From positions 1 to 59,920 of IMG/VR virus record IMGVR_UViG_3300035199_000797: a stretch of DNA of 59,920 nt. The stretch is one strand, 5' to 3'. This DNA is from a virus. Its lineage: Duplodnaviria > Caudoviricetes. Both the position numbers and the translations under genes were made by a program. Numbering within the stretch: position 1 is the first letter of the stretch; every line of letters begins with the position of its first letter. Shown in pieces: positions 11,639 through 29,138 of the stretch. The notes below the pieces were generated by a model, which worked only from the letters and a program-made list of their open reading frames with translations, did no database searches and was not told where the DNA came from.

Positions 11639-12073
11639 ATGACCCGTGCCCAAGACATAGAGCCCGCGCCGGGCAGTTACGGCGATCAACTGAGACAGCA
11701 ACTGGAAATGGAGAAGGCGATGGCAGAGCAAGTAGGCACGAACGGCAAAGGCGAAGGCGCTGGCATCGGGCACAACGTCGCGGACTTGAAGAAGATGATC
11801 CAGGACTGCGCGAAGTCGATGATCGAAATCAAGGGAGAGCGCAAAGACCTGAACGAGAGGGCAGGGGACATCCGCCAGAAGCTGAGAGACGCCGGCGTTC
11901 AGACAGCCGCCTTCGATTACGCGGTACGCCTGTTCGAAATGGAGCAAGAAGCGCGTGGTTCGTACATGGACACGCTGCGGCTATCCATGGAGGCGCTGTC
12001 GGTTGGCGAACAGGGATCGCTCCTCGCGGCGTTTGAAGGCGCCAGGACCAGCGAGCAAGCCGACGCCACCTAA
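11639..12073 (+). CDS. GapR/DUF2312-like DNA-binding protein
   Basis: GIGHN...ERKDLNE...DI...AG...A...VRL...EAR pattern. Confidence 0.65.
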   Translation: MTRAQDIEPAPGSYGDQLRQQLEMEKAMAEQVGTNGKGEGAGIGHNVADLKKMIQDCAKSMIEIKGERKDLNERAGDIRQKLRDAGVQTAAFDYAVRLFEMEQEARGSYMDTLRLSMEALSVGEQGSLLAAFEGARTSEQADAT

Positions 12074-12627
12074 TGCCCGGTCTGCTTGCCCTCGATATCG
12101 CGACCGTGACCGGTTGGGCCTATACCGCCGATCCAAATGACCTGGATCTAGAACCTGAGTTCGGATCGATGCGGTTGCCCAAGACCGGGCCGGACATCGG
12201 AGCATTCCTCTGCGCATACCGTGAATGGCTGATGCCGCTGATCGAGCAGCTGCGGCCAAAGGACGTGGTGTTCGAGTCTCCAATCATGCCGGCGACCTCG
12301 CAGATCATCATCCTGCGCAAGCTGTACGGCCTGGCCGGCGTGACCGAAATGGTCTGCACCGAACACCAGACCGCCTGCACCGAGGCCTACATGCAGAAGG
12401 TCCGCAAACACTTCTGCGGCCATGCAAGGCCAGGCGACAGGAAGGCGAAGGGCCTGGAGCGCCGACGGCAGATCAAGGCTGCGGTTGTCCAGGCCTGCCG
12501 GGATCGAGGCTGGAACCCAACAAACGACGATGAAGCCGACGCTCTGGCGGTGCTGGATTACGCCCGCGCAGTGCTGTTCCCGGAAACGGCCGGCGAGGGG
12601 CTGCCGCTGTTGAGGGAAGCGGGATGA
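12073..12627 (+). CDS. RuvC-like Holliday junction resolvase
   Basis: LALDIATVTGWA, VVFE and DDEADA motifs. Confidence 0.8.
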   Translation: MPGLLALDIATVTGWAYTADPNDLDLEPEFGSMRLPKTGPDIGAFLCAYREWLMPLIEQLRPKDVVFESPIMPATSQIIILRKLYGLAGVTEMVCTEHQTACTEAYMQKVRKHFCGHARPGDRKAKGLERRRQIKAAVVQACRDRGWNPTNDDEADALAVLDYARAVLFPETAGEGLPLLREAG

Positions 12628-13262
12628 ACGCCCCGGTTGCCATCGTGCGCGATCCTTGGCCTTGGTCTGACCAAACAGAGCTGGCCAAGGAAGCCGAATG
12701 CTTCGAGACGCCGGCCTGGGCGGTTGAGGCCATCCTGGACGCCGAGCTGCTCACACCCATGGTCATAGATCCCTGTTGCGGTCGCGGCGTCATGGCGCAA
12801 GCCGCCGATCGCCGCGGGCACAACGTCTACGCGATGGACAAATACGATTGGGGCTTTGGCGCCACCGGGCTTGATTTCCTGCATGATCACGACGTTTGGG
12901 GCATGATCCCCGGCGCCACGGTCTTCATGAATCCGCCCTTCAGTTTTGCCGAGCAATTCGTCGAGACCGCTCAAGAATGCGGCGCCCGCAAGATCATCTG
13001 TTTCCAGCGCTTCGCTTGGTACGAGAGCGAACGCCGCACCAAGTTCTGGGCCAAGTATCCACCCAACCGCGTCTATGTCTGTGCCGATCGCGCAACGTGT
13101 TGGCGCATCGATATCGCGCCCAAGGACCGCAAGTCTGGCACCACCACCGCCCACGCCTGGTTTGTTTGGGAGCACGGCCAGCCGCCGGGAACGCTGCTGG
13201 GCCGGCTCTCGAAGAAGCGGCACCCACAAGGTGATCCTGTACAGGGGAGGGCAGCGGAATGA
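12624..13262 (+). CDS. DNA N6-adenine/N4-cytosine methyltransferase
   Basis: DPCCGRG SAM-binding motif and NPPF catalytic motif. Confidence 0.85.
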   Translation: MNAPVAIVRDPWPWSDQTELAKEAECFETPAWAVEAILDAELLTPMVIDPCCGRGVMAQAADRRGHNVYAMDKYDWGFGATGLDFLHDHDVWGMIPGATVFMNPPFSFAEQFVETAQECGARKIICFQRFAWYESERRTKFWAKYPPNRVYVCADRATCWRIDIAPKDRKSGTTTAHAWFVWEHGQPPGTLLGRLSKKRHPQGDPVQGRAAE

Positions 13263-14281
13263 GCCACAGGGCCATGAACTGGGCAACATCGGTGCGCGGC
13301 ATAAGCAGCACCCAAAAGCTGGTGTTGCTCGTCCTGGCCAATGACTACAGGGACGACGAAGATTGCGCCTTTCCAAACCAGCGCCGGATCGCCGATCACG
13401 CTTGCCTATCGCGACGTGCTGTGCAGACCGCACTCGATGGGCTGACAAGATCGGGGCTCATCACGCGCCGGCACAGACAACGCGACAACGGCTCGCGAAC
13501 CAGTGATGAGTACAATTTCAACTTCAACCTAAGCGCACCGGATGCGCCTAGGGATGAAATCCAAGGCGCACCTGAGGCAATCCAAGGCGCACCTCATACC
13601 ATCCAAGGCGCACCTCAGGCAGGCCAAGGCGCACGAGGTGCGCACCCAGAGCCGTTACTAGAACCGTTACCTGAACCGTTACCTGAGCAGGTCCCCGATG
13701 AACCGCAATTGGCCATGGACGCTTGGAATGCCATGGCCGAAGAGTTGGGCTTGGCTCAGGTGCAAGATTTCACCACCGAGCGACGGGCCAAATGCCGTGC
13801 TCGTCTGAAGCAGTGTGGCGGCCTGGAGGGCTGGGGGGCGGCGCTGGCAAAAATTCGCGGCGATCCGTTTTTTTTGGGCGGCGGCCCCCGAGGCTGGATG
13901 GCCGATTTCGATTTTCTGATGCGAAAAAGCAAGTTCACCAAACTGATGGAAGGCGGATATGACCACAAACCTACCGGTGGCAACGACAAGCGGCCGCCTG
14001 ACCACGAACTCCGACGCCGAATTGCTGGCGCGGCGGCTAGTGTCATGGAGGCCGAGCGACGAAGTGCCGGACGATGCGACACCGGAGCGCCTGGCCAGCC
14101 TGCAAACGGAATTGACATTGAGGCTGGAGCCAGCGGGGGCGGAGGCGACAGCGGCGATCCTCTACGAGTTGTTTCTGGTGCTCCCGGCGCCGGCGGAGGC
14201 GGCAATGGCGAAGTACATCGAACGCCTTCAGACCTACCCGGCCTGGGCCTTGAAAGCGGCGATCGACAAGGTGATCGATAA
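13259..14281 (+). CDS. Replication initiator with N-terminal HTH
   Basis: KLVLLVLAN..CAFPNQRRIA HTH; GWMADFDFL..K..EGGY C-domain; internal iterons. Confidence 0.85.
   Translation: MSHRAMNWATSVRGISSTQKLVLLVLANDYRDDEDCAFPNQRRIADHACLSRRAVQTALDGLTRSGLITRRHRQRDNGSRTSDEYNFNFNLSAPDAPRDEIQGAPEAIQGAPHTIQGAPQAGQGARGAHPEPLLEPLPEPLPEQVPDEPQLAMDAWNAMAEELGLAQVQDFTTERRAKCRARLKQCGGLEGWGAALAKIRGDPFFLGGGPRGWMADFDFLMRKSKFTKLMEGGYDHKPTGGNDKRPPDHELRRRIAGAAASVMEAERRSAGRCDTGAPGQPANGIDIEAGASGGGGDSGDPLRVVSGAPGAGGGGNGEVHRTPSDLPGLGLESGDRQGDR
13559..13642 (+). repeat. Four 21-bp iterons, probable replication origin
   Basis: (AT)CCAAGGCGCAC at 13559, 13580, 13601 and 13622; followed by 12-bp GAACCGTTACCT-type repeats. 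Confidence 0.75.
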
Positions 14282-14615
14282 CCACAAATACGCTTCCACG
14301 CCGACCATTGGCGACATCATCGAAACCATGCGGGCGCTTCCCGGCTACATCGAACGATTTAGGATCAGGGCCAACGTATCGATCTTGCAGATCCGGCAAC
14401 GGCGCAACCCGCCACGGCCACGGCAAGCGGTCTGCACCCCACCGCCCGCACCCAAGGTCAAACCCGTGCCACGCGAGCCCCTGAGCGCCCGACAGGCGGA
14501 AGAACAGATGCTGAGGGACCAGGAGAGGGTGAGGGCGGAAATGGCGGCTGACGGCATGGATGGCGCCGTTGATGAGCGTGGCAACCTGGTTGAGAGCCCG
14601 GGGGCAACCGTATGA
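13959..14615 (+). CDS. Hypothetical replication-associated protein
   Basis: Position after the initiator; YPAWALKAAI..PTIGDI; overlaps the initiator by 323 bp. Confidence 0.55.
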   Translation: MTTNLPVATTSGRLTTNSDAELLARRLVSWRPSDEVPDDATPERLASLQTELTLRLEPAGAEATAAILYELFLVLPAPAEAAMAKYIERLQTYPAWALKAAIDKVIDNHKYASTPTIGDIIETMRALPGYIERFRIRANVSILQIRQRRNPPRPRQAVCTPPPAPKVKPVPREPLSARQAEEQMLRDQERVRAEMAADGMDGAVDERGNLVESPGATV

Positions 14616-14821
14616 GCGTCCAATCCCAGCTAGGCCGGATGGTGGACCGCCGCCACGGTGTGGAAATCGACAGGCAGGGGCAAATGGCCCGCGAGGGCTG
14701 GCGGACGCTTGGCCTGCTGATTTGCAGCGAGAACGACCCGCGCCTTTCCTGGGTCGAGCGGGAGCAGATCAGGCAGATCGGGACTAAATTGAACGGCGAG
14801 CGGAGGGACGGTGTTGGTTGA
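14612..14821 (+). CDS. Hypothetical phage protein
   Basis: ATGA-coupled. Confidence 0.55.
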   Translation: MSVQSQLGRMVDRRHGVEIDRQGQMAREGWRTLGLLICSENDPRLSWVEREQIRQIGTKLNGERRDGVG

Positions 14822-15536
14822 ACGTGCTGGCGGGGATCCCAAGTTGATAGCCGAGCATATCGACCGGCTGATGGAACGCGCGACAGAGGCCGGCGCGGTG
14901 CCGATCGATGTATCACCGTTCCAACAAGCCGCGGCTTTGGATTGGAGCAAGGCCCAGGCCCACAACCGGCGCCTTCGCAGGGCCCGCCCCAACCGCATGG
15001 CATTCGCCAAGGAGAAGCTGCCAGACCGCGACGGCGGCACGGTAGAGACACGGCGCAAGATCAAGACCGACGTGATCGCCAGGTTGCTCAAGCAGGGCGA
15101 TATCGAACGCATACACCAATCCGCCGCGGATGAAATCCACGATGTCCAGGTGGCCTTGATGATGTGCTTTTTGCCGTCCAAAGGTTCAGAGGTGCGCGTT
15201 GATGATACGCCCAAGCGGCCGGGCCCGTTGGACAAACTGAGCGCACATCACGAGCGGGTCTTCCGGCTACGATACACGCCGTGGGTTAAGTCCATGATGG
15301 CCAGGCCGGTGGAGTTCAGGGCGCTCGAAGGGGGCAGGGAGCGGCTATTCGCTTATCGGCATGCTCTTGCGATTGTCACGGATGTGGTACTGGATAACGT
15401 CGGTATGCGGGAGGTTGAGGGCCGGCATGGAATCCGGCACGGGCACGCTAGGAGGATAGTGCGGGGCTCGCTGGATCGATATTGTTGCGTGGCGGGTTGG
15501 GTAAAGAGGAGAGGTGTTAGCGACCAATATAGTTGA
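14811..15536 (+). CDS. Putative late-gene regulator (Q-position, C-terminal HTH)
   Basis: Last gene of the rightward early operon; C-terminal sigma4-like HTH pattern (VVLDNVGMREVE...GSLDRY). Confidence 0.6.
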   Translation: MLVERAGGDPKLIAEHIDRLMERATEAGAVPIDVSPFQQAAALDWSKAQAHNRRLRRARPNRMAFAKEKLPDRDGGTVETRRKIKTDVIARLLKQGDIERIHQSAADEIHDVQVALMMCFLPSKGSEVRVDDTPKRPGPLDKLSAHHERVFRLRYTPWVKSMMARPVEFRALEGGRERLFAYRHALAIVTDVVLDNVGMREVEGRHGIRHGHARRIVRGSLDRYCCVAGWVKRRGVSDQYS

Positions 15537-16119
15537 CTTGGCCATCAGCCTGGATCAACGCTATTTCGATCCCGGCAATTCGGCAGCGGTCAATCATCTT
15601 CTGCGCCAGTCGGCTTGTCCCCTCAGTGCAAGGGACGACTGCAACATTCCTTTCCTGGCCTGGGTCGCGAGACATTAAGAGGCCGACTACTTCACATAAT
15701 CCACTACGAAGTCGAGATTTTAGACCTGGGTGGCGTGTGTTTAGTATCCCGCCCTTGCACTCCGCGATGATTTTTTGACGGTCGGTCAATGCCACGACGT
15801 CTCCCAGACCGGGTTTCAGGCTGACAACAATGGTTCTTTCCCCATCGTTGTAAACACCGCCGTATTGTGTGCTCCCGACAGCCTTTGTGTGCTGAAATCC
15901 ATGCTTTTCCAACCATCCGCGAATGTCGAACCGTTTACCGTGTTCGCCATCAGGGTGAATTTCGATCTCTCGCAGGCCGGGCACCGTCTCAAATAGATGC
16001 ATGGAAAAGGCAAGCAATACCGCTGCTTCTGTAAGGTGATGCTCCATACTACCGTCGGTTTTGTTCTTTCGACTTTCTGGGGGCACACGTTTATCAATGA
16101 GGTCTTCGTAAGTTTTCAT
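15517..16119 (-). CDS. PD-(D/E)XK restriction-endonuclease-like protein
   Basis: GDVVA...IIAECKGG...GLLM motif. Confidence 0.6.
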   Translation of the reverse strand: MKTYEDLIDKRVPPESRKNKTDGSMEHHLTEAAVLLAFSMHLFETVPGLREIEIHPDGEHGKRFDIRGWLEKHGFQHTKAVGSTQYGGVYNDGERTIVVSLKPGLGDVVALTDRQKIIAECKGGILNTRHPGLKSRLRSGLCEVVGLLMSRDPGQERNVAVVPCTEGTSRLAQKMIDRCRIAGIEIALIQADGQVNYIGR

Positions 16120-16232
16120 GGATTAACACTAGCATGGTTCCTGGTCGCGATGCTGTGAGGTTGACTTCGCGTTAAAGGGCGAGACGGCAAATAATAGTTG
16201 GGCCGACAGCCAGGTGCGCCGCTGAACCGTCA

Positions 16233-16354
16233 GACATTACTGAAATGTGCGAAATCGATGAGCGGTATGGGGTGCGGCACGGCCATGCGCGGAAGATAGT
16301 GCGGGGTTCGCTGGAGCGGTACTGCATCGTTGCTGGGTGGATGGACAAGGGGAG
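16233..16354 (+). repeat. Diverged copy 1 of the late-regulator 3' end
   Basis: Translates DITEMCEIDERYGVRHGHARKIVRGSLERYCIVAGWMDKG. Confidence 0.85.
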
Positions 16355-16529
16355 CTGCGTCTGAGGGCAGTCGCATTTGCTTCGACTGGCCTACGTCGGA
16401 AATCGAAGGTGACCTCCCTCCCTAATTGTCCTCATTCACAAGGAATGCCTGTTCTGATGATGGTCCCGAATGCTACTCACTTCATGCCAAGAGGCGACGA
16501 TTGGGCCCTTGCCTATTTCTTTTGCATAT

Positions 16530-17192
16530 TCAACTGCCTGTAAACTTTGTACCAAACACAAAGGCGCCAACAAAAAGGCCCAACACAGCAGCTAGAATAC
16601 TCCAGAGTTGCGTTGGTTTGAGGCCGTTAACCAACTGGCCGATTGTGAGGTCGGCAGGATTACCGCCCAACAAGTCACTGGGGTTCTTTTCCTTATTGGG
16701 AGAGAATTGATCTATTCTTGATTTCCAGCTGGAAAGTACACCATTGAACTCTACGGAGTTAAGAGATGATGGTTCTGGCTCCAGATTTTGCACATACCAA
16801 TCATAGCCAGGTTCAAGCAATCCTTCGCTCTTTATACCATTTTCCACGATGACAAGAAGTGGAAGGTTACGTGAATAACACATGGCAGCTTCAATGTGGT
16901 TCCACGGCGTAGGAAGCTTAATATCACTCAAAGGCTTTTCGTTTTGCCCGCCTCTTTTGTCTAAACCTTGTTGGAAATATGAACGTTCGAGTGCTAAGAC
17001 CACCGCTCCTTCGCATTTATCCATCAGCTCTTCTACTGTTTTAAGGGGCGCTTCTGAACTGAAAGTATTTCTCCCTACTGTATGTGGAATAAGTCCTTCA
17101 ATACGAAGGCGATCTTCCACGGCGCGTACAAATTGTTCCTGCGCGTCGGTAAATGTTCCGCCGACACTCAAGAATATGTTGCGCTCTGCCAT
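16530..17192 (-). CDS. TIR/NDT-like domain protein with C-terminal TM helix
   Basis: NIFLSV first strand, TPWNHIEAAM helix with Glu, hydrophobic tail. Confidence 0.6.
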   Translation of the reverse strand: MAERNIFLSVGGTFTDAQEQFVRAVEDRLRIEGLIPHTVGRNTFSSEAPLKTVEELMDKCEGAVVLALERSYFQQGLDKRGGQNEKPLSDIKLPTPWNHIEAAMCYSRNLPLLVIVENGIKSEGLLEPGYDWYVQNLEPEPSSLNSVEFNGVLSSWKSRIDQFSPNKEKNPSDLLGGNPADLTIGQLVNGLKPTQLWSILAAVLGLFVGAFVFGTKFTGS

Positions 17193-17380
17193 CGATTATC
17201 ACCCCCTGTTTCCCAAAAAAACACTACGATTCTAGCCAGACCGATCAAGTTCGGCCGGATTTGGCTAGTCTCCAGTAATAACGGCCGGTTGCGGTTAGCA
17301 TAATCGATGCAAAACCAAAATCAAATAATTGATATTCCCTCCGTACTGGGTCGAAAATTTTCGCCATATTTCACGCCGCC

Positions 17381-17492
17381 ATACGCTAGGTGAAGGACCG
17401 ACATGGTGTTCGGCACGGCTGTGATCGGAATATAGTGCGAGGAGGGGGCTGGAGCGGTGTTGTGGCGTGGCGGGGTGGCTGGATAAGAGAAG
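17381..17492 (+). repeat. Decayed copy 2 of the late-regulator 3' end
   Basis: IR*VKDRHGVRHGCDRNIVRG/LERCCGVAGWLDKR with a stop and a frameshift. Confidence 0.75.
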
Positions 17493-17550
17493 TCGCGTTT
17501 GAGTAGGTTCGCTTTGTCGCGCGTAGCTCGCTGTGTGCCAAAACCGGTCG

Positions 17551-17889
17551 TCACCGATTATCAAATTTCTCCTTCAGGTCCTCCAGCATTTGCTTTTCCG
17601 CTTTCTGCTGTTCCAGTTTCTGTGCTTCCTCGTCTGCAAGGCGCGCTTTCATCTCTTCATCGGTCTCGGGCCTCTGGAAATGGACCTTCACATTCAACCC
17701 ATAATTCCTGTGTGAATCTTGAAAACTGACGGTTTCAAAGGCCGCACTGTCCCGATATTCCTCCGGCACCAATCCGAGGTATTTCTCAACCCATGGGATC
17801 AGGTCGACCAGTTTCTTTGGCATACAGTTCCACTCGGGTCCAAATTCCTCTTCGCAATTCAGCACGACATTTTTGGTTTTCCTAGTCAT
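17551..17889 (-). CDS. Hypothetical protein with coiled-coil C-terminus
   Basis: 112-aa ORF with purine-rich RBS. Confidence 0.6.
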   Translation of the reverse strand: MTRKTKNVVLNCEEEFGPEWNCMPKKLVDLIPWVEKYLGLVPEEYRDSAAFETVSFQDSHRNYGLNVKVHFQRPETDEEMKARLADEEAQKLEQQKAEKQMLEDLKEKFDNR

Positions 17890-18141
17890 ACCCTTTCCTC
17901 GCCGCCTTCCTCATACCGCAGTGCGTTACGATTTATCTCCCCCACAGGTTCAGGGAGTCTTTGAGCATATCCACGGCTCGATTATAAACCATCCTGTGCT
18001 CGGTGCGTGCGCCTCGGTCAGAGCCCGGTCCGGCGAAGCCGGGCGCGGCAGCCTAATTGTGGTCTATCCTAGGAAATAATTGCACTCCCCGGTTGTCGCC
18101 ATGCATAATTAATTCGAGATTAGAACTCGCTTGAGGCATGC

Positions 18142-20232
18142 ATGGTATCTGGAGAGGACATACGAAACTTTTTTCAAACCAACTTCAATATGCGAAGTAC
18201 GCTTTTTTGGTTGCATCAAAAGCGTGAACTCCAGCGACACCAGAGCTTTTTCGATACCGTTGAAAGTCAGCCTCTGACGGGTCTTCAACGCCGCTCAGTC
18301 ATCCTTGATGAACGTAGAAATCTGGTCGTTGCCGGTGCCGGCACCGGCAAGACATCCGTGATCGTCGCCAAGGCGGGCTATCTGATCGAAAGCGGCAAGT
18401 GCAAGCCGGAAGATATCTTGCTCCTTGCGTTCAATGCGGATGCAGCGAAGGAATTGGCTGAAAGATGCAAGAAGCGCTTGGGAGTCGAAATCCAGGCATC
18501 AACTTTCCACGGCTTGGGTAACCAGATCATCGGATCGGTCGAACCCGTAGTGCCCACCATTTCCCGCCTCGCGCTGGACCAACAATATTTCGGCCAGTTC
18601 CTCGGCACGGTCATCAATGAGCTCAAAGGCGATACTTGGGTCTGGAGAAAGGCCCGAACCTTTGTTCTAGGACACCTCAAAACCTATAAGGCGGAAGCCG
18701 ATTTCAATTCGCGCGATGCCTATGAGGCCTACATCCGCGCGGTTGAGCTTCGCGCCCTATCGGGCGATCTAGTGAAGAGTTTCGCCGAGCTGGATATTGC
18801 CAATTTCCTTTTCCACAACGGTGTCCGGTTCGAGTACGAAGCGCGCTACCCGCACGTGCCTGAGCGGTATCAGCCTGACTTCTATCTCCCGGACTACGGC
18901 ATCTGGATCGAACATTTCGGGATCGACAAAAAGGGCAACACCGCGCCATTCATCGACCGAAATAAATATCACCGCGAGATGGCATGGAAACGCGGGATAC
19001 ACGCTCTGTACAACACGAAGCTGCTGGAAACTTTTAGTTGGCAGAAGTCAGATGGCGTCCTAACGCGGCGGCTGAACGATCTTCTGAAAGGCGCCGGGGT
19101 CGAGTACGCACCACGCTCCCAAGACGAGATTCTTGAGGCCCTGCAACGGGCGGGATACACGACGCAGCTCGCCGTCCTGGTCGGGACGTTCCTCTCCCAT
19201 TTCAAATCCAACCATTTGTCGTTGGCGAAGTTGAAGCGCAAGGCGAAAGCGTCGGCAAATGCCGCGCGGGCCAATGCGTTTTGTGAGCTGTTCGAGTACT
19301 TCTTCGAACGATACCAATCCGAACTCGACAGCAAAAATCCAAGAGAGATCGATTTCAACGACATGATCGCATCGGCGACGCGGTACGTACGGTCCGGCGA
19401 ATTCTCTGTTCCCTGGAAGTACATCATCGTCGATGAATTCCAGGATATCTCCGTCGGCCGGTATCTATTGCTCGAAGCCATGTTGAAGAGCCGGCGTGAC
19501 CTTAAGTTTTTTGCCGTCGGCGATGATTGGCAATCCATTTATCGCTTTGCCGGCAGCGACATTTCGATCATGAGCCGGTTTAGGAGTTTTTTTGGCCGCG
19601 CCACGATTGTGAAGCTCAACCGCACCTTTCGCTTTAACGACAAGATTGCCTCCGTCAGCGGAGACTTTGTTCAGAAGAACCCGAACCAGATAAGAAAGAG
19701 ACTCCACTCAAAGATCAAATGTGAAGGCCCGCAAATATTCTTGCACTGGGCCGATACGATCTGGGGCAAACAACATTCGGACCGTACGACGCTTGTGACC
19801 GTCATCGACTTGTTAAAAAAGGAGCCTAGTCTGGAAGGTGCCTCTCTTCTGATATTGTCGCGATATAATCATCAGCTACCGGACCGCACAGCCATAAAGG
19901 TCCTTATGGATTTTTGGCCTGGTGAATTGAAACCTCCCTCGACGGTACATAGAGCCAAAGGACTGGAAGCCGACTACGTGATCGTAAACGGGTTGAGCGC
20001 CGAGAAATACGGGTTCCCTTCAGAATTCGAAGATGACCCTTTGCTGAATCTCGTGCTTGCGCATCCAGACAAGTTCGAACATGCCGAAGAGCGAAGATTG
20101 TTCTACGTCGCATTGACTCGGGCAAGACGCCAGGTCCACCTGATTGTTGACCGAACTCATCCGTCATGTTTCGCACTCGAGTTGCTTAACGGCGAGTACA
20201 ATGTGAAGCATATCGGCTTTTTGCCCAGATAA
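18142..20232 (+). CDS. UvrD/HelD (helicase IV-like) SF1 helicase with inserted nuclease domain
   Basis: AGAGTGKT, DEFQD, VGDDWQSIYRF, HRAKGLE, EERRLFYVALTRA; YQPDFYL...IEHFG insert. Confidence 0.9.
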   Translation: MVSGEDIRNFFQTNFNMRSTLFWLHQKRELQRHQSFFDTVESQPLTGLQRRSVILDERRNLVVAGAGTGKTSVIVAKAGYLIESGKCKPEDILLLAFNADAAKELAERCKKRLGVEIQASTFHGLGNQIIGSVEPVVPTISRLALDQQYFGQFLGTVINELKGDTWVWRKARTFVLGHLKTYKAEADFNSRDAYEAYIRAVELRALSGDLVKSFAELDIANFLFHNGVRFEYEARYPHVPERYQPDFYLPDYGIWIEHFGIDKKGNTAPFIDRNKYHREMAWKRGIHALYNTKLLETFSWQKSDGVLTRRLNDLLKGAGVEYAPRSQDEILEALQRAGYTTQLAVLVGTFLSHFKSNHLSLAKLKRKAKASANAARANAFCELFEYFFERYQSELDSKNPREIDFNDMIASATRYVRSGEFSVPWKYIIVDEFQDISVGRYLLLEAMLKSRRDLKFFAVGDDWQSIYRFAGSDISIMSRFRSFFGRATIVKLNRTFRFNDKIASVSGDFVQKNPNQIRKRLHSKIKCEGPQIFLHWADTIWGKQHSDRTTLVTVIDLLKKEPSLEGASLLILSRYNHQLPDRTAIKVLMDFWPGELKPPSTVHRAKGLEADYVIVNGLSAEKYGFPSEFEDDPLLNLVLAHPDKFEHAEERRLFYVALTRARRQVHLIVDRTHPSCFALELLNGEYNVKHIGFLPR

Positions 20233-20267
20233 TGAGAGTGTGGGACAGGGACGCGGTTCATTTCGGC

Positions 20268-20420
20268 AATGTCGTGCTCGATAATGTCGGCTTGCGGGAG
20301 GTCGAGGAGCGGCACGGGGTGCGGCATGGACATGGGCGGAAGGTGGTGAGGGGGCTGGAGCGGTATTGCAAAGTGGCGAGGTGGTTAGAGAAGAGAGGTT
20401 TTATCGACCAACATAGTTGA
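20268..20420 (+). repeat. Diverged copy 3 of the late-regulator 3' end
   Basis: NVVLDNVGLREVEERHGVRHGHGRKVVRGLERYCKVARWLEKRGFIDQHS*. Confidence 0.9.
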
Positions 20421-20705
20421 CCTGGCCATCAGCCTGGATCAAAGCTATTTCGATCCCGGCAATTCGGCAGCGATCAATTATCTTCTGGGCCAGCCGATTT
20501 GTCCCTTCTGTGTAGGGGACGACTGCGATATTCCTTTCCTTGCCCGGGCAGCGAGTCATTAAGAGGCCGACCGCCTCACATAGTCCGCTACGAAGGCGGG
20601 ATTTTTGACCTGCGTGGCGGGTGTTCATTATCCCTCCCTTACATTCCGCGATGAATGTTTGGTGGTCGGTCAATGCCACTACATTCCCAAGACCAGGTAT
20701 CAGCC
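20401..20705 (-). pseudogene. 5'-truncated paralogue of the 15517-16119 nuclease
   Basis: IAECKGG...IEIALIQADGQVNYVGR nearly identical to the C-half of 15517-16119; N-half absent. Confidence 0.85.
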
Positions 20706-21046
20706 GTAGCGTCAGGTACATACGAATTAGTAGGTGCATGACACTTGTCGCGATATGGAGCCTAGAAATTTGTATGCCCAATAACCATATGTTAACGTAA
20801 TTAGGTATTGACTAAGTCTCGACGTTGTGGCTAAGGAAGCGAATCGTTGCATAACAACAAGTTTCGCAGTAATATAAGCATTATTGTTAGTATGGAACCT
20901 AAACCCCTTTAGCCTCAATAGGTTAGAGTCCTCGGCAGCAAGATCAAATACACATAAAAGTGTGCGGGGCGAAAGTAAGCCAGCCGATTCTGTTGGCGCG
21001 GCGAGTGTAGTAGCCGCCCCCACTTCGACGGAGAAAGGATTATGTC

Positions 21047-21271
21047 ATGTCGCAAAAGGAGCTGTTGATAAACCGACTTGTCGATGACGAACAGCGTCGG
21101 CATGTCGATATAAAGTTTTTGCGTGGCCCGCGTGAGGCCTCAGAGGAAGACTTTTGCCAAGAAGTGAACGCCGCGCTTTTTCAGGTCCGTAGTGGCCAGG
21201 CCGCTTCCGAAGAGGCCTTTGAAGAAGACGTGACGCCCGTTGATTGGCGAGAAGTAGTCAATAACTTGTAA
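21047..21271 (+). CDS. Small acidic hypothetical protein
   Basis: 74 aa, upstream of the peptidase-like gene. Confidence 0.6.
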   Translation: MSQKELLINRLVDDEQRRHVDIKFLRGPREASEEDFCQEVNAALFQVRSGQAASEEAFEEDVTPVDWREVVNNL

Positions 21272-21315
21272 GGCGCGGCCTTTGCAACCTATCTGACATG
21301 TGTTAGATAGATTGC

Positions 21316-21906
21316 ATGCCTATGGATATATTTGAATACTTCGGAAGCTTTACTAGACTTCCCGTAACAATAGATGATATTGCCGGCTTTATGTTGGAAC
21401 GGCAGTATATTGACAGAATCTTTTTCCATCCCGTTAAGGTTGAAAGTGCTATTCTGCATGCCCTATATCATCGTGTAGATGAAATATCTCCACCATACGC
21501 TCCTGATAGAGAAGTGAGGGTTGCTCATATCTACTATGCAAAAGACCTTGATTTGCAATCCCGGCGTATTGCTGTCTGCAAGGAGTTGGTTCACGTTCTT
21601 GATGGCGAGGGAACACGCGCATTATCAACCGAAGAGATCGGTACGCTGATTTCACAGGTCGTGTTGCCATTTGATATCCAGAATGCCAATCGCGCTGCCA
21701 TCTGGGACCGATTCGCGATCATAAATGCGTTGAGGCTCCTCTTTCCAAGAGATGCACTCGAAGCATTTCTTCCTTTCTATGAAAAGGGTGAGGTTACCGC
21801 AGAAGAACTCTCGATACTGGCAGAGATTCCTGAAATGTATGTGAGATTTCTTATGACACCACAATGGCAGACCATTTTGGATGCAATGGAAAATAATGAA
21901 AATTAA
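21316..21906 (+). CDS. ImmA/IrrE-like metallopeptidase-fold protein (KELVH variant)
   Basis: HIYYA...RRIAVCKELVHVLD...ALRLLFP. Confidence 0.6.
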   Translation: MPMDIFEYFGSFTRLPVTIDDIAGFMLERQYIDRIFFHPVKVESAILHALYHRVDEISPPYAPDREVRVAHIYYAKDLDLQSRRIAVCKELVHVLDGEGTRALSTEEIGTLISQVVLPFDIQNANRAAIWDRFAIINALRLLFPRDALEAFLPFYEKGEVTAEELSILAEIPEMYVRFLMTPQWQTILDAMENNEN

Positions 21907-22166
21907 GGCCCTTAGCCCAAACTGAACAAAATGCGGCATGGCCGGCGATCCGCTCGATAACTTGGAATTTGAGCATACACACCCAAGCACCTAGCGATTG
22001 ACTCTGACATGCGTATGCGGCGTTCGCAGGCCGTTCAAAATTTTACTTGACCGTCGGTCCAGGGCAAGAGTTCGTCGACTCGGCTTTGCGGGGTGGCTTT
22101 GGGCGTTGGGATGTTGCCAAGGTTATCTCAGCCCCACAACAAGCGGCGCGGCGCCGGCGCCACTAT

Positions 22167-23381
22167 TCAAAAGAGCTTGAGCTTCAGCCAGATCGGCCGG
22201 TGATCCGAGAACACCCGCGTTGCATCGTCTAGGCTCTGGTTCTCCGTCCTCGATTTCGCCTTATCGAGCGCCGCGGCATCCAACAAGGTGAAGGCTTCGG
22301 ACTTTGGCACAGCCTTCGATTTCGCCAGTTCTTCCGCGTATTTGGTGACGCCGTAGCTACGTGTTTTTTCCACTTTGGCAACTTGTGCCTTGATATAGGA
22401 ATTGGCGTCCATGAACGAGATTATGCCGCAGTCCTTCAGTAGGCTGCCGTCGTGCGCCAGCATTTGTGCCAGTGGGGGGCTCAGCAAAAACTGATCATAG
22501 AACTGGCCGGCGCTGCGAAACGCCAGGTTCGTCCTCAAATCATCTGACTTGGCCTTGCCCAGGTAGCTGATGTCACGGAACAGGTGAAATATTTTGCCGC
22601 TTTGATCGAGAGCGGCTACATGCGCCTCGCCCAGGTAGTTCTCAACTCTGGACGTTTTTTGATAACCCCAGTTCATATCACCCAGCGCGATCGCGAGCTG
22701 GCTGTCACGAGCCGCCAACCAATCCGCCATCTTGATCATCTGGCTGCCGCGGTCCGGATCTTTCGGAGTCAGATGGACCGAACCGATGCTGATTTCTCGG
22801 CTCTCCTCACCCTTGGTGGCATCGAGTTGCCAAACGGCCATATCCCGCTTCGGGCCCAGGTCGAAGTAACCCACCCAAGCCGCTGAGAGCTCATATCCAG
22901 GGGGCTGTTTTCGATATGCGATAAGCGAGGTTTCTCTACCCGCTCCGCTACCCGAGGCGCCATCTGCAATGTCCACCGCCCAGTCCGAACCAAAGAGAAT
23001 ACGCAACTGGGCGACCATCGAATCCAGGATCTTTTGCTGGAACTCCGTTGCAGGGTCATCGTGTAAGAGGCCCAGGCCTACTTCCTGCAGCATGATGACA
23101 TCGGCCTCGTCAATGAGGTCCACCAATGCCGCCAGGTCCTTCGGCCCGCGGCCCACGTTGCCGAAATTCCGGACATTCATGCTCACCAATGTCAATTGGC
23201 CTTCCGTCGAAGGGACGAGGCCTTTGGCGAACCGTGGATCATTCGTTACGACGTTGGCGTCTGCGCGGGATGGATAGTTCTGCGCAGAGGATGTCGGCGC
23301 GAGAATTACCGCGGCAAGGAGTATCGTCAGCGCGGCCGGCCATTTCAGAAACGGTCCAAAGAGGAAATCTCTCATTTGCAT
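22167..23381 (-). CDS. Secreted EEP (DNase I-like) nuclease/phosphatase
   Basis: Signal peptide; SMNV, LQEV, VHL, GDMN, YDQF and SDHRP motifs. Confidence 0.85.
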   Translation of the reverse strand: MQMRDFLFGPFLKWPAALTILLAAVILAPTSSAQNYPSRADANVVTNDPRFAKGLVPSTEGQLTLVSMNVRNFGNVGRGPKDLAALVDLIDEADVIMLQEVGLGLLHDDPATEFQQKILDSMVAQLRILFGSDWAVDIADGASGSGAGRETSLIAYRKQPPGYELSAAWVGYFDLGPKRDMAVWQLDATKGEESREISIGSVHLTPKDPDRGSQMIKMADWLAARDSQLAIALGDMNWGYQKTSRVENYLGEAHVAALDQSGKIFHLFRDISYLGKAKSDDLRTNLAFRSAGQFYDQFLLSPPLAQMLAHDGSLLKDCGIISFMDANSYIKAQVAKVEKTRSYGVTKYAEELAKSKAVPKSEAFTLLDAAALDKAKSRTENQSLDDATRVFSDHRPIWLKLKLF

Positions 23382-23469
23382 TTCTCCTAACTGAAAAGGC
23401 CGGCGCTCCAATGGCGCCAGAGGACTTGTGGCCAGGTGCTTTGGCGCGCTTTCGCCGGAGGCAAGTTGC

Positions 23470-24477
23470 TCAATTCGCCCCATAGGTAATTTTCACCGTC
23501 TTGCCGTCTGCATCAGTCCCACGCCCTGTGCCCATGCCCAATTTGTGACTGATGTAGGTTCCCGATGCACTTCTGCCGTCGGAACATGTGATTGCCCATG
23601 TTCCGGTCGGCAGTTTGTCCGTTCCATATTTCCCCGACGCGAATTGCCACCTGCCCTGGCACGAGATGTTTCCCATGTATACATCGAATGGGCCCTCTCT
23701 ACTGGTGATCTGGTAATTCAGGTATCCAATTAACAGATCGCCGGATCCACCCCAATTTGCGGCAATTGGAACGTATTTCCATTCGCCCTCAGCTATAACT
23801 CTTCTGTCGTTGTCTCCGGTTGGATTGGCAGGCTTTGCCGCCATTTTATTCTGTTCCGTGGGCGGCTCGTACCCACCTTTATGGCCAGATAAAAGAACTA
23901 CGCGTTTTGCGAACTCAGATCCAATCGTCTCTGTTTGACAATATAACCCTCTGACCAAATTGTTGGCGGAATACGAAAATGGTCGCCCGGCACTCGTATC
24001 GTCATATCCAAATCCCCAACTAATACAGTTTCCGTCGCCTACTTTAAGAAAATGAATATTTAGTTTGCCAAGCTGGCCGTGAAATGATTCCGATGCTCCC
24101 CATTCGATCACTTTGTTTGCTGTGAGTCCAAATGTGGATTCGATCGTATCCTTATCGTCGATGCTACCTTGGAAATCCCAGGTGAATCCAGGATCGGCTT
24201 TCCATCCGGCAACAATTGCAAACCGGTTAGCGGCCTGCCATCGAATAATCTCAACAAATCCTGGCAAAGAGCCTGTCCACGCTCTCTTTGCTGTTTCAAG
24301 TTTCAGATCTATGGCTTCGCCTCTGAATATGACCTCCAACTCGTCCTCCGACACCGTCTTCCAGGCTATATCTTCAGCATTTGAAACATTTGGGGCCACA
24401 AGGAGGGCGAGGATAAGGGCATAAAGAAAATGCCTGGCCCCGCACTTCGCGAGGGTGAAACTCAAAGGTAGATGCAC
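23470..24477 (-). CDS. Secreted hypothetical protein
   Basis: GGGAGG RBS with GTG start; signal peptide; paired cysteines. Confidence 0.55.
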   Translation of the reverse strand: MHLPLSFTLAKCGARHFLYALILALLVAPNVSNAEDIAWKTVSEDELEVIFRGEAIDLKLETAKRAWTGSLPGFVEIIRWQAANRFAIVAGWKADPGFTWDFQGSIDDKDTIESTFGLTANKVIEWGASESFHGQLGKLNIHFLKVGDGNCISWGFGYDDTSAGRPFSYSANNLVRGLYCQTETIGSEFAKRVVLLSGHKGGYEPPTEQNKMAAKPANPTGDNDRRVIAEGEWKYVPIAANWGGSGDLLIGYLNYQITSREGPFDVYMGNISCQGRWQFASGKYGTDKLPTGTWAITCSDGRSASGTYISHKLGMGTGRGTDADGKTVKITYGAN

Positions 24478-24777
24478 GCCGGCCTCCCATCCGAGCAGTT
24501 GTCCGCCGCGGCTTATTTTGCCCTTACGGCCTGCCCAGCTACACGTTATCGTAATGACACGTCGAACTGTATGCAATCTTCTCAGCGGTGGGCGTTGGTT
24601 GATATGGCGATAAAATTTAGAGCGGTGCGGCAGGCTGGCCGGGCACAAACCATCATGACGTGCGCCTTTCAGGGCTTGATGGTAGGCTTTTCGGCAACTT
24701 GCTAGTGGAGAGGGCGATGCGAATGCGTTTGCCAGCCAGCGTGCTCCGCTCCTAGACAATTGACAGGGAGATAAATC

Positions 24778-25764
24778 ATGCGGCTGATCCTGTTATGCGT
24801 TTCCTTCACGTTCTGTCTACTGCTCCAGCCGGCGTCCGCCTGGGCCTGGGGCCAGAACGGCCACCGTATCGTTGCGGCCATCGCAGAGGCGCACCTGACC
24901 CCCGAGGCGGCGGCAATGGCCAAGAAGATCCTCGGCGGCCGTAGCCTGGCGCAGGTCGCGACCTGGCCGGACGAGATCCGCTCCGATCCCAGCTGGAACT
25001 GTTCCAAGCCGTTCCACTTCGCCACGATCCCGCCCGGAGCAAAGTATCCGGATAAAGGCGTTGCCGAGGGTGACTCTCTGCAGGCGGTAACCTATTACAC
25101 CGACCAGCTCATCGCCCAGAACACGTCCGCCAGGGACAAGGAGATCGCCCTCAGTTTCGTTGTCCACATCATCGGCGATATCCACCAGCCTCTGCATAAC
25201 GGCCTCGGTTGCGATCTCGGCGGCAACACTGTGCGCGTGGAATACTTTGGCCAGTCGAAAAACCTGCACTCGGTCTGGGACACGGCAATGCTTGAGTCCG
25301 AAGGCCTGAGCTTCACCGAGTTCGCCAATTTCCTCGACCACGAGAAAGTCCCTGATGCCGTCGCCTCAACCAGCTCGACGCCGGTCGACTGGATCAAGGA
25401 CAGTCAAAAGCACCTGCCTGGCGCCTACCAGTGCGACGTCGGCAAGAAAGGGGACGGATGCAAGTGCTATTGCGGGGATTGCGCCAACGGCCTGTCGCCG
25501 ATCGGCGGCTGCGGTATCCAGACCTGCTCAATCGATCCAGCCGCCATGACGGTTAAGCCGGTTCTGAAGTACACCTACAAGTTCCGGAACCTGCCCGTGG
25601 TCAGGGAGCAGCTACTGGCAGGTGGTATCCATCTGGCGGCGCATCTGAACTGGGTGCTGAGCTCGGCGCCGACGCCACCTGCAGCTTATAAGAAGATGAG
25701 CGACCAGGTGCGTGCTTTGCAGGACTGGGACAAGGCGCCGGGGAGCTGTCACGGCGACTCGTAG
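24778..25764 (+). CDS. S1/P1 nuclease, secreted
   Basis: AWA/WGQNGH, WPD, HIIGDIHQPLH, NLHSVWD. Confidence 0.93.
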   Translation: MRLILLCVSFTFCLLLQPASAWAWGQNGHRIVAAIAEAHLTPEAAAMAKKILGGRSLAQVATWPDEIRSDPSWNCSKPFHFATIPPGAKYPDKGVAEGDSLQAVTYYTDQLIAQNTSARDKEIALSFVVHIIGDIHQPLHNGLGCDLGGNTVRVEYFGQSKNLHSVWDTAMLESEGLSFTEFANFLDHEKVPDAVASTSSTPVDWIKDSQKHLPGAYQCDVGKKGDGCKCYCGDCANGLSPIGGCGIQTCSIDPAAMTVKPVLKYTYKFRNLPVVREQLLAGGIHLAAHLNWVLSSAPTPPAAYKKMSDQVRALQDWDKAPGSCHGDS

Positions 25765-25888
25765 CGGTGCATTTTTGAGAGTGTTTTCCGTTGGCCTAGG
25801 CCATCATGCCCAGGCCAATGCTAGGGGTATCCGATAGCAAAGGATCAAGGGTTGACCCTGGGAAAATTGTTCGAGAGCGGTGGACGGC

Positions 25889-27052
25889 CTACTTCCTCCC
25901 GCCTGCTAGTTCGGTGATTGACGCCAATTGTGCCCAAGGTATGGGTATCCGGCGCGGGTTCGACCCGTCCACCGCCACCCGCCAAAGTCCGCCACTGGGT
26001 TCTCCTGCGTTAATTGGAGATGCTACAGCGTAAAATAAAAAAAATGATTCATCGTTAGAAAGTGTAAATTCTCCAGCATGCGTTACACCATTAGTTATCG
26101 TATTGAAATAAGTTACCTTTTTGTTTTTTCCATTTTCACGAGCCCAAATTCCCTGAGTTTTTGGTGGATTTACAAGCTTACCTATCGTTCCTTTATTTGA
26201 TCCGAAATATAATTTATGTCCATTATTTGCAGGTATTGGAGATCCAGAATAAGCGCGAGCAACATTAGATATATCATTGTCCATTACAAACTCTGGTCGC
26301 CAGTCGTTTTTATTTTCATTTATCAATATAATACCATTGTCACCGTACTTCTTTCTAAATTCCCAGTAGTTTCCATCAGATAAATACCTGGGATCCTTGG
26401 GATTGAAAAAAATATTACCTGACATATCTCCTGCGAAAACAAACTCATCCCCACGCCCCGTATAGTAAGGCCTGCTCGTCGCTCTGAAATCGAAATCAGT
26501 CAGGGTCTTGGTCTTGCCGGTTTTCAAGTCCAGACTATAAATATCAACGCCGGCAACGCGGACACGGGTGCGCGTCTTGGTGTTATCGGGGGTTTGGCTT
26601 ACGGTTGCAAAAATCAGCTTTCCGCCGTTCGGATGATACGATGGCCAAAGTTTGTAGCTGTCCGAATCCTCGACGATGCGCCAGTGCTCCGTCGCCAGAT
26701 CCATGATCGCCAGCTTGGTCGAATACCGGCCGGTGTCGTTGAGTTCGAATACCACCTCCTTGCCGTCGGGCGAGAACATGGCCCGCAGCCAGCTGTGGTG
26801 CGCCGGCTTGCGGTAGACCTTCAGGTTACCGCCATCCAGGCCCCAGGCAACTAAGTGACATTTCCGGGTGCGTGCCAGACCCGCCGGGCAATAGGTCGTC
26901 ATCACCCGCTCATTCGATGGGAACAGGACGCCGGTCATGATTTTTGCGTCTTCGGGCAGGACGGGAGACTTTAACCAGTCGGGTGGCTCATCGCCGCATG
27001 CGCCCAAGGCGAGCGTCAGGGCCAATGCCGCCAAGTGCCAGGCGGCCTTCAT
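25889..27052 (-). CDS. TolB-like beta-propeller lipoprotein
   Basis: Lipobox LGAC; FSPDGKEVVF and PSYHPNGGKLIF repeats. Confidence 0.8.
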   Translation of the reverse strand: MKAAWHLAALALTLALGACGDEPPDWLKSPVLPEDAKIMTGVLFPSNERVMTTYCPAGLARTRKCHLVAWGLDGGNLKVYRKPAHHSWLRAMFSPDGKEVVFELNDTGRYSTKLAIMDLATEHWRIVEDSDSYKLWPSYHPNGGKLIFATVSQTPDNTKTRTRVRVAGVDIYSLDLKTGKTKTLTDFDFRATSRPYYTGRGDEFVFAGDMSGNIFFNPKDPRYLSDGNYWEFRKKYGDNGIILINENKNDWRPEFVMDNDISNVARAYSGSPIPANNGHKLYFGSNKGTIGKLVNPPKTQGIWARENGKNKKVTYFNTITNGVTHAGEFTLSNDESFFLFYAVASPINAGEPSGGLWRVAVDGSNPRRIPIPWAQLASITELAGGRK

Positions 27053-27466
27053 TCGGTCGATATCCCAATTTGAAGACAGTCGCCGTCGGGCCTAATTCGC
27101 ATTGGCCGCACCACCCCATCCTCAACCGACATTTCCCAGATAAACTTCATTTCCATGGTGATAGTATCCAAATCGCGCCACTGCAGAAATAGATTTTTGC
27201 GCAGCTTTCTAGATAACCAAGGCCCAATCTGTTGACAGAGCTCATGTGGCCAAGTTTGTCGTCATCTAGACATATTTCTCTCAACGTTTTTCCTTTTTTT
27301 GGATTTCCTTGGCGCAAACCGGATTGTAGATCAGGGCGTGAAGCCGAAACCTGATCTCGTTATTGCGGAACATCCGGCATCAGGGCGGCGTCCCGTTGAG
27401 CGCGTCCTTGCCTTCGTTGATGTACTGCTCCGCTTCGACCCGTAGATTGTAAGAACCACTCCCCGC

Positions 27467-27495
27467 TTGACATTGGGGACGAAAAACACCAAGTT
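27467..27495 (+). promoter_or_regulatory. Putative sigma70 (late, pR'-like) promoter
   Basis: TTGACA-17 bp-CAAGTT, followed closely by a terminator. Confidence 0.45.
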
Positions 27496-27515
27496 CTCGT
27501 CAGATTCGATTTCTG

Positions 27516-27549
27516 CGCCCCGGTGAGATTCACGCGGGGCGTTTTCGTT
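27516..27549 (+). terminator. Rho-independent terminator
   Basis: CGCCCC...GGGGCG hairpin plus TTTTCGTT. Confidence 0.6.
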
Positions 27550-27617
27550 GGGGGGCAGGAATGTGGGTCAACATGGGGGCCGTCATAATCGATAGATGGT
27601 CAGGACGGGCTCCATGC

Positions 27618-28595
27618 CTAGTCCCAGAGGTTTTTCATTAACATCGACCTTAATCGAATGCCGGCTAGTGTGAGGCGCAATTTCACGTTGACGAGGCCAT
27701 TCCTCTGATAGGCGTCAGTCAAGTTTGGCGCGACAACGCGATTGCATGGATTGCCCGCGGTAAAAGGGCTGCCATCGGATCTGCAATATTTAGTCACCGG
27801 TAGCCGTGTCTGTACATAGGATTCGTTGGCCCAGTCGATTGGCGTTCCTGCAACGACTAGCTCAATTGAAAATTTCGACGTTCTCACTTTGTCACTCGTT
27901 GCTCCTGAAGCAATTAGTTTATCTGAGAATCTACGGGGATTCGCTTTGAATTTGGCCAAGATTGGATCGGCGTATGCCTTCCAGCCCTTACCCTCCATGG
28001 CCTTCTTTAGAATGCCGGTGTCCCAAATCCAGTGGAGCGCCTTACCAGAGCCATAAAATCCATATACGTCGGTATAGCGATTACCGCCCCAATCATCCGC
28101 GAAGCTGACATGCAGGGGTTGATGGATATCGCCAACCCAGTGTCCGAGGAAGAACAAGGCTTCTGCGCGTTCGAAATCGCTGCCCTGAACCGAACTGTGA
28201 TACTCAATGGCCTTCAGCACACAGCCCTCGACCTTGGGGCAGTCGTCCCGATCAACTAAGGGATCGTCACGTTTCAGATTTATGTAGTGCCATTTATCGA
28301 ACCGGGCATAGCGGTTGAACCAAGGCTTATATTTGGTATCACCGCCTTTGCTGAACTTCCTACCCTGTGCCCTGGCAAGGTCGGCGAAGGTACAGGCCGA
28401 AGCGTAGTCTTTGTACCTCGTGCCTTCGAACTCGAACGCTTCGCGGAGGGCGTCAAGCTTCGCCTTGGCCGATTCTGGCAGGAGCTCGTATGCGATATAG
28501 CAGACAATCTTGTGGCCATCGTCGCCCCATGCGGCCGCCGGATTGTTCGCCAGCAAGGCCAGGCCCATGGCGAATAGGAAGAATACTCGTTTCAT
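27618..28595 (-). CDS. S1/P1 nuclease, secreted (second, divergent)
   Basis: WGDDGH, WHYIN, HWVGDIHQPLH, LHWIWD. Confidence 0.93.
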   Translation of the reverse strand: MKRVFFLFAMGLALLANNPAAAWGDDGHKIVCYIAYELLPESAKAKLDALREAFEFEGTRYKDYASACTFADLARAQGRKFSKGGDTKYKPWFNRYARFDKWHYINLKRDDPLVDRDDCPKVEGCVLKAIEYHSSVQGSDFERAEALFFLGHWVGDIHQPLHVSFADDWGGNRYTDVYGFYGSGKALHWIWDTGILKKAMEGKGWKAYADPILAKFKANPRRFSDKLIASGATSDKVRTSKFSIELVVAGTPIDWANESYVQTRLPVTKYCRSDGSPFTAGNPCNRVVAPNLTDAYQRNGLVNVKLRLTLAGIRLRSMLMKNLWD

Positions 28596-28760
28596 ATGAA
28601 GGCGCTCCCAGATGCGATCCTGACCATCAGATTTCCCGCTAGCTCCGGGATTGTAGCGCGATCACAGGATTCCAGGGTTCTTTCTGGCGTCGGGTGGTCG
28701 CTTTCTTGTGACCAGCCCTTACGCGCTCGGGGTCGTGTTAGACCCGGCGCCAGAAAGGAC

Positions 28761-29132: not shown

Positions 29133-29138
29133 GATTAG

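Follow-up and report, generated by a model that had tools for sequence, protein, structure and literature searches.

The window analysed here is the whole of IMG/VR record IMGVR_UViG_3300035199_000797 (59,920 nucleotides, nt), a complete prophage of ~59.7 kb integrated at a tRNA-Glu gene of a marine alphaproteobacterium. Analysis of the DNA downstream of reg (14811-15536, plus strand), a plausible late-gene regulator gene, showed that the 3' end of this gene recurs as diverged copies (hereafter tips), that each tip is followed by accessory genes (hereafter cargo), and that the tips are alleles of the reg 3' end and not recent local duplicates. The array, seen on one contig, is a phage moron hotspot whose scars are unusually easy to read, not a new gene-capture machine, and it probably arose at this hotspot behind reg as related phages or prophage remnants underwent successive rounds of unequal or illegitimate recombination.

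Anatomy of the array behind reg

A tblastn search with the 241-amino acid (aa) product of reg identified three further copies of its C-terminus in the window, all matches being C-terminal, and the same tip places were recovered by a nucleotide repeat finder, by a genome search (four matches) and by a hidden Markov model (HMM) of the reg family. These results confirmed the preliminary description of this DNA, made from the sequence alone, in which the last 40-50 codons of reg were said to recur. The first tip (c1, 15381-15536; all four tips are on the plus strand) is the resident 3' end of reg and has a class I tail ending ...GVSDQYS. The second (c2, 16233-16354) is an open frame covering residues ~198-233 with its own stop codon and a class II tail, and its tblastn match (16233-16349) corresponded in frame to reg residues 195-233 (24/39 identical, E 1e-12). 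The third (c3, 17372-17492) is decayed, as had been suspected for one copy, by an in-frame TAG and a frameshift; its match (17372-17490, E 7e-5) was returned in two pieces and two frames. The fourth (c4) lies within a 62-codon open reading frame (ORF; 20232-20420) where reg homology begins at approximately codon 191 (20268) and ends in a class I tail that overlaps the following gene; its match (20268-20417, E 2e-18) covered reg residues 191-241 in frame with one codon missing and 34 of 51 residues identical. Scores from the family HMM were highest for c4 (50.4 bits), followed by c2 (44.1) and c3 (8.0).

The ORF list agreed with the earlier claim that a minus-strand accessory gene follows each copy (15517-16119, 16530-17192, 17551-17889 and 20401-20781; cargo A, B, C and A', respectively), to which a plus-strand helicase gene in the third unit is now added. 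Orientation in the array is thus mixed, with cargo A, B, C and A' convergent with reg and the helicase gene co-directional, and the last codons of reg overlap the 3' end of cargo A. The truncated cargo paralogue reported at the last copy was also verified: A' is a 5'-truncated paralogue of cargo A that lacks the N-terminal 96 residues and matches only residues 97-200 at 80% identity, with homology stopping at 20715. Units 1 and 4 have 438 nt in common at 80.6% identity (15382-15819 versus 20269-20703), indicating that a tip and its cargo move jointly in the A-type units. The join between the helicase gene and c4 is tight, as reg homology starts within ~36 nt of the helicase stop codon, and the ATG of the 62-codon ORF overlaps that stop codon (TAATG, 20230-20234), which could reflect translational coupling, for which this layout is typical, or chance. 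GC content of the tips (57-62%) is near that of reg (61%), with reg and the replication genes together at 61-62% and the cargo at 46-52%; c2, at 59%, stands between lower-GC cargo genes.

No sign of misassembly was found, as a second assembly of what are probably the same reads was collinear with the window. A single Logan contig of 22,006 bases covers positions 14000-22201 with 0 differences and 0 gaps, although this contig derives from one run, probably the source sample, and Logan provides contigs only, which are not independent data. Threading of strain variants with different post-regulator cargo into one chimeric contig would be conceivable given the metagenomic source, a branch in the Logan contig graph near 22167-22350 and another contig of the same run with a 35-nt match to c3. 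We nevertheless consider such a chimera very improbable: the Logan contig spans the whole array without a difference, every junction is distinct in sequence and position, and the longest exact pairwise matches between tips are 10-20 nt, too short to join graph paths at k=31, which we take to be the k value of the Logan assembly graph. As these matches do not exceed 20 nt, repeat-driven chimerism is unlikely. At the graph branch the long contig stops (22201), and other Logan contigs match the window from ~22167 rightwards with different sequence leftwards, a sign that the block may differ at its right edge among members of the population.

Tip alleles and related loci

The ratio of non-synonymous (dN) to synonymous (dS) substitution was calculated from codon alignments of c1, c2 and c4 (40-45 codons) and ranged from 0.11 to 0.25 with dS values of 1.0-2.7, figures that rest on short sequences and do not separate purifying selection before displacement from selection after it. 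Alleles for comparison were available from a metagenome-assembled genome (MAG G001). At synonymous sites c2 was nearest to the allele on MAG contig C166 (dS 0.78) and c4 to the allele on MAG contig C101 (dS 0.82), and both were nearer to these MAG alleles than to c1. The tips, which are 62-82% alike, also fall into two tail classes. The class I tips (c1 and c4) run on for seven more residues, which overlap cargo A at its 3' end, and the class II tips (c2 and c3) share their stop position with the MAG alleles C101 and C102b. Some similarity continues immediately past the stop codon among these four class II sequences, and homology of c3 to the C101 allele extends 67 nt beyond it.

The tips are therefore diverged alleles of the reg 3' end, and the proposal that they came from related phages is supported by low dN/dS at dS values of ~1 or more and by the proximity of c2 and c4 to MAG alleles. 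Local tandem duplication, of the reg tip alone or together with cargo, and subsequent drift of the copies where they lie would account for direct repeats in one orientation within 5 kb and for the tip and cargo A common to units 1 and 4. This explanation has very little probability, as dS is at or near saturation while dN/dS, which should approach 1 in a drifting pseudogene, remains at 0.11-0.25, as c2 and c4 are synonymously closer to MAG alleles than to c1, and as the cargo is not the same between units.

Close relatives of reg were very rare, with three proteins identified by a word-based search. No match to reg or cargo A was present among the cultured phages of INPHARED, and single-protein scans for close reg relatives returned none in genome contigs and no locus in viral contigs. 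A 6-row alignment was used in place of the over-diverse 55-row family alignment; scans with it found none in viral contigs and three short contigs only in metagenomes, which were uninformative on arrays. One of the relatives (P0002) is a regulator 65% identical to reg, encoded on a 43-kb contig.

Genome searches were centred on MAG G001, which contained four partial reg matches and no whole gene. On contig C101 the match is a solitary 108-codon ORF with an ATG, covering reg residues 158-236 among chromosomal genes. On contig C166 a tip (residues 175-234) is followed by five unrelated genes and then by homologues of two accessory genes of the window, 23470-24759 (58%) and 27618-28595 (72%), with order and orientation conserved. 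A syntenic tip with different cargo shows that the hotspot site is variable, in a comparison that involves one relative which is itself a remnant. Alignment of window and MAG also showed short conserved intergenic pieces (86-90%) that reveal a further insertion of ~2.5 kb in the window. On contig C102 (8524-13766) an adenylate cyclase gene and a gene pair for a tyrosine recombinase and an IS91-type transposase interrupt the reg remnant between residues 155 and 174, and a middle piece (residues 107-155) is retained as well. A near-identical recombinase gene terminates contig C101, 3 kb from another tip. The IS91/tyrosine-recombinase element was considered as the agent of tip displacement and rejected, as it is absent from the window and behaves in the MAG as a multi-copy insertion sequence (IS) at contig ends.

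The 3' end of the gene is included at every remnant locus of the close clade, and two proteins from other sources, P0003 and P0017, have junction residues in common with two of the MAG remnants. The unusual N-terminal junction of the C102 remnant is also present in P0003, which comes from a JGI metagenome. No support was obtained for such arrays as a general feature. Seven distant-homologue loci (8-20 kb) each had one reg copy, and a family match was found in 29 of 401 alphaproteobacterial genomes, of which only MAG G001 had several C-terminal pieces, in a survey that scored at most seven candidates per genome and may have missed weak pieces. The G001 pieces lie on separate contigs or are split by an IS, and no array was found in the other family-bearing genomes searched.

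Origin of the array and likeness to known systems

The tips begin at approximately codon 191 (c4), 196 (c3) and 198-201 (c2) of reg, and the MAG remnants at codons 158, 175 and ~197. No exact core in register was found among the tips, the only 8-mer common to all four being out of register. Single-strand DNA folds of the four tips on both strands gave no attC-like structure, with all eight lying at z -1.12 to +1.28 relative to shuffled sequences, and searches for an integron integrase matched no recombinase family (Pfam, PHROGs, PADLOC, NCBIfam) among the ORFs of 14.8-22 kb. The lack of a shared core, of folding and of an array recombinase together with the ragged left ends therefore favours serial unequal recombination. 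Genes for a RecE/YqaJ-like exonuclease and for a RuvC-like resolvase in the phage genome were counted for the recombination reading.

The mechanism and order of events that we infer would be as follows. Each partner genome would have carried a different cargo gene downstream of its regulator gene, and in each event the DNA just past the cargo of one genome would have been joined to the regulator gene of the other, ~40-50 codons short of its end. This could have occurred by a single illegitimate crossover or deletion between co-resident or tandem genomes, or by an event that was anchored by homology but illegitimate at one end. The product would keep one whole regulator gene, gain cargo and retain the older tip with its older cargo, the extra tips being displaced 3' ends left as fossils. 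Retention of short tips only may reflect the loss of long direct repeats by homologous recombination or later trimming. The iterative accretion of units envisaged in the preliminary description is supported in outline by the allelic tips, the A-type tip and cargo travelling together and the variable site, but its corollary that older units were pushed downstream disagrees with the order of decay.

Several observations weigh against recombination of this kind. Neither a single-unit sister phage nor a parental junction was seen, and a single metagenomic contig carries the whole case. Decay of the tips is out of step with a left-to-right order of age, with the rightmost tip best preserved and the middle one most broken. 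Four of the six remnants begin within ~10 codons (191-201), and this clustering of left ends at the start of the helix-turn-helix (HTH) may indicate a preferred site or selection for a bare HTH instead of random joining. Four of the six are also fully open in frame, the exceptions being c3 (TAG and frameshift) and the C166 match (TGA); the open remnants and the c4 ATG on the helicase stop codon make it possible that some tips are more than fossils.

The tips might accordingly have been retained by function, as orphan HTH decoys against the activator of a superinfecting relative or as cis-acting terminator or insulator elements. This would suit the 62-codon ORF of c4, the open frame of c2 with its internal ATG at approximately residue 199 and the 108-codon ORF with ATG on C101, as well as the conservation of the last two modelled HTH helices (199-206 and 212-228) and dN/dS values below 0.3. 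The C166 remnant would also have persisted, as P0017, from another source, has the same junction residues. However, c3 is broken and P0017 is without the last helix, low dN/dS could wholly predate displacement, and open frames of 40-60 codons in DNA of 60% GC are weak evidence. Consensus scans returned no excess of promoter-like sites (6 versus 6.3 +/- 2.4 in shuffled sequences, with a sigma-70 consensus that may not suit the host) or of terminator-like sites (11 versus 8.5 +/- 3.1), and no Rfam match was obtained in 14-30 kb of the window. No RNA data came to light in a run search restricted to DNA, which listed a single run. We regard retention by function as unlikely.

The clustered left ends could alternatively reflect site-specific tandem accretion, in which integrase-less elements would target the 3' end of reg, bring a replacement tip and be stacked by a recombinase acting in trans, in the manner of tRNA/tmRNA islands, CIMEs or SCC elements. 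A tip with an element to its right is the pattern of insertion into a gene 3' end, the starts of three window tips and one MAG tip span ~10 codons, and site-specific mobilisation of islands at ssrA is described in PMC3146451. The ends of the prophage itself show the pattern: an intact tRNA-Glu gene (149-224) adjoins the tyrosine integrase gene (280-1371), and a 51-nt direct repeat made of the tRNA-Glu 3' part is found at 175-225 and 59790-59840. As the 175-225 copy beside the integrase gene recurs at 59790-59840, the pair represents attL and attR. This att repeat is 50/51 identical with sharp ends, in contrast to the tips with their 62-82% likeness, lack of an in-register core and differing left ends. 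Moreover, no recombinase gene was present in 15.5-22 kb, the sole integrase found being that at the tRNA site, and no reg-like piece was located near cargo relatives elsewhere (0/11 cargo A loci and, at E<=0.01, 0/124 cargo B and helicase loci; 0/135 in total). These results weaken site-specific accretion only, since old events could have lost their cores, and leave it quite improbable.

A further idea, somewhat speculative and in our judgement improbable, is that the tip serves as a portable homology handle, so that a tip with its downstream DNA would be pulled in by RecE-type functions and stacked, while the displaced tips that stay open, c2 and c4, would yield small orphan HTH proteins that interfere with late activators of competing relatives. 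Donors would be sister phages or solitary tip-plus-cargo remnants in host chromosomes, and such an array would, if real, constitute an integrase-free, homology-driven cassette system. An origin through a homing endonuclease was rejected, as the array contains no such gene and the HNH gene (29782) is grouped with the terminase gene.

The comparison to integrons made in the preliminary description was not upheld. In both systems a row of single-gene units is captured at one locus, but the array has no IntI-type integrase, attI/attC sites, hairpin sites, common promoter or common orientation; the likeness thus fails on recombinase, in-register exact core, attC-like folding and orientation. Arrays of orphan toxin tips and immunity genes at rhs and cdiA are thought to form when incoming alleles recombine via the conserved part and displace older tips. 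These offer a formal parallel, with a full-length gene and then displaced 3' fragments, each with a downstream partner gene. They differ in that the Rhs or contact-dependent inhibition (CDI) tip is the variable functional part and is paired with a same-strand cognate immunity gene, whereas the tip in the window is the conserved part and its partners are unrelated and mostly on the opposite strand. Islands at the 3' ends of tRNA, transfer-messenger RNA (tmRNA) and protein genes likewise consist of an intact target gene with elements separated by displaced 3'-end copies, and are known to accrete in tandem by site-specific recombination (Pavlovic et al. 2004); the array of the window lacks the exact repeats and the recombinase of these islands, and its left ends are clustered but not identical in position.

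Gene arrival at phage accessory hotspots, which are well known, is usually inferred from presence and absence alone. The closest likeness was to moron hotspots (HK97 and lambdoid phages; P2/P4), where genes of foreign composition, mostly facing backwards, lie between conserved phage genes at a fixed spot between early or regulatory and late genes and vary in content between relatives (Juhala 2000; Hendrix 2000; Cumby 2012; Rousset 2022). In the array, cargo differs at the syntenic site in C166 and composition differs from that of the backbone. Two differences were found: the flanking gene is a GafA/DUF6456-related gene of an alphaproteobacterial phage and not a lambdoid or P2 gene, and three displaced pieces of this left flanking gene survive between the cargo, so that the stacking history is visible. 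A literature search for flanking-gene remnants inside phage hotspots returned only general hotspot and prophage papers, which is not proof that there are none.

Traces of the flanking gene at the joins can be dated, and they indicate that the array was built by three or more separate imports from diverged relatives. The joins lie close together where the HTH begins, and each cargo gene comes from a different, wide-ranging gene pool. The locus could serve as a test case of illegitimate versus homology-anchored capture if sister phages are found, and it also offers four uncharacterised genes that probably serve the lysogen and a rare phage-borne relative of GafA/GafZ.

Cargo genes, regulator family and prophage layout

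Cargo A (15517-16119, minus strand, 200 aa) has no family in Pfam, PHROGs, PADLOC or NCBIfam. Its relatives (51-75% identity) come from a wide range of bacteria and from one archaeon, and the seven loci that were annotated carried type I restriction-modification genes, HNH_2 genes, a ParB-methylase with a DUF5681 gene, and ArdC as neighbours. Cargo A' (20401-20781, minus strand) is its truncated paralogue. Cargo B (16530-17192, minus strand, 220 aa) also matched no sequence family, and 44 related loci were found in many phyla, including picocyanobacteria and Pseudomonadota. Its predicted fold and language-model features resemble TIR, CAP12-PCTIR and nucleoside 2-deoxyribosyltransferase proteins, which is treated as a lead only, and a C-terminal hydrophobic segment was judged by eye; cargo B is a candidate abortive-infection effector. 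Cargo C (17551-17889, minus strand, 112 aa) has no family. It was considered as a conserved partner of the helicase and ruled out, as it was absent from the neighbourhoods of helicase relatives (0/80 loci, the best 80 of 246 confirmed relatives).

The helicase gene (18142-20232, plus strand) encodes a 696-aa UvrD/helicase IV-like protein with an inserted nuclease-like stretch and a complete C-terminus. It matched PF00580 (2.4e-42) and the GajB-like and RTasHel helicase models of PADLOC, and scored 402 bits against NF008276, under the cut-off of 543. Relatives of the cargo elsewhere comprised 11 loci for A, 44 for B and the 246 confirmed relatives for the helicase. Neither cargo A, cargo C nor the two small ORFs to the right was found in any of the 124 cargo B and helicase loci, and DNA similarity of the cargo to its nearest relatives stops at ORF ends. 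Viral-contig scans identified no cargo A relatives and one distant cargo B locus, which was without a regulator piece. Each cargo gene is thus of foreign composition and independent distribution, and a putative role in defence or exclusion that serves the lysogen is a reasonable guess.

The longest ORF of reg encodes 241 aa, the database gene call being 179 aa from M63. The product had no direct match in Pfam, PHROGs, PADLOC or NCBIfam. An exhaustive search gave 184 cluster representatives for the family at E<=1e-3, and the C-terminal motif is conserved across the 55-member family alignment. The AlphaFold 2 (AF2) model of reg, with a mean predicted local distance difference test (pLDDT) score of 85.7, ends in a beta-hairpin and three helices (185-193, 199-206 and 212-228; pLDDT 96-98) that form a helix-turn-helix. 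Foldseek searches of this model against PDB gave no match at E<=0.001, with sigma-28, WhiG, ECF sigma and KorA among the weak rows, and a sequence search of PDB with the family profile gave nothing under E 0.1.

The designation of reg as a late regulator received indirect support only. Eight of the 55 aligned relatives matched DUF6456 (PF20057; best E 1.7e-5), a GafA-type domain, and the window protein itself did not. BLAST hits of GafA carry the DUF6456 annotation according to a passage of PMC9638019, and GafZ is presented in part of PMC11150451 as a sigma-like HTH antiterminator of a gene transfer agent (GTA) cluster. The tie of reg to DUF6456/GafA-type activators of phage or GTA late genes is thus, as judged by sequence, a distant family link and not membership. 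The gene lies after the replication genes and before the late genes, and at three of the seven distant-homologue loci the reg homologue adjoins an S24 repressor gene or is near terminase genes. A role as late-gene regulator is plausible from this family tie and position. In another alphaproteobacterial genome (G331, contig C3, 658442-660734) two N-terminal reg-profile matches lie 2 kb apart, and matches in several other genomes were N-terminal only; the two halves of the family may also occur as separate proteins, like GafY and GafZ.

The early region of the prophage comprises a minus-strand gene for the RecE/YqaJ-like exonuclease (6154-7149; phrog_412, DUF3799), followed by a gene for a Cro/CI-type HTH protein and by genes for the RuvC-like resolvase (12073-12627), a DNA methyltransferase (12624-13262) and an O-like replication initiator (13259-14281). 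The exonuclease gene overlaps a 425-aa gene of the uncharacterised phage family phrog_3657 (5072-7149 for the pair, minus strand), which may encode an annealing partner and hence complete a phage-owned recombination system. Accessory DNA, mostly of lower GC than the backbone, occupies ~14 kb downstream of reg (15.5-29.5 kb), and the late genes begin with HNH (29782) and the large terminase gene TerL (30741), then portal, protease and capsid genes. Beyond the array, the rest of the accessory region (20716-29500) contains small ORFs, an EEP-family gene, a beta-propeller gene, an Ant-like gene and two S1/P1-nuclease genes (24778-25764, plus strand, and 27618-28595, minus strand), which are diverged from each other (~30% identical).

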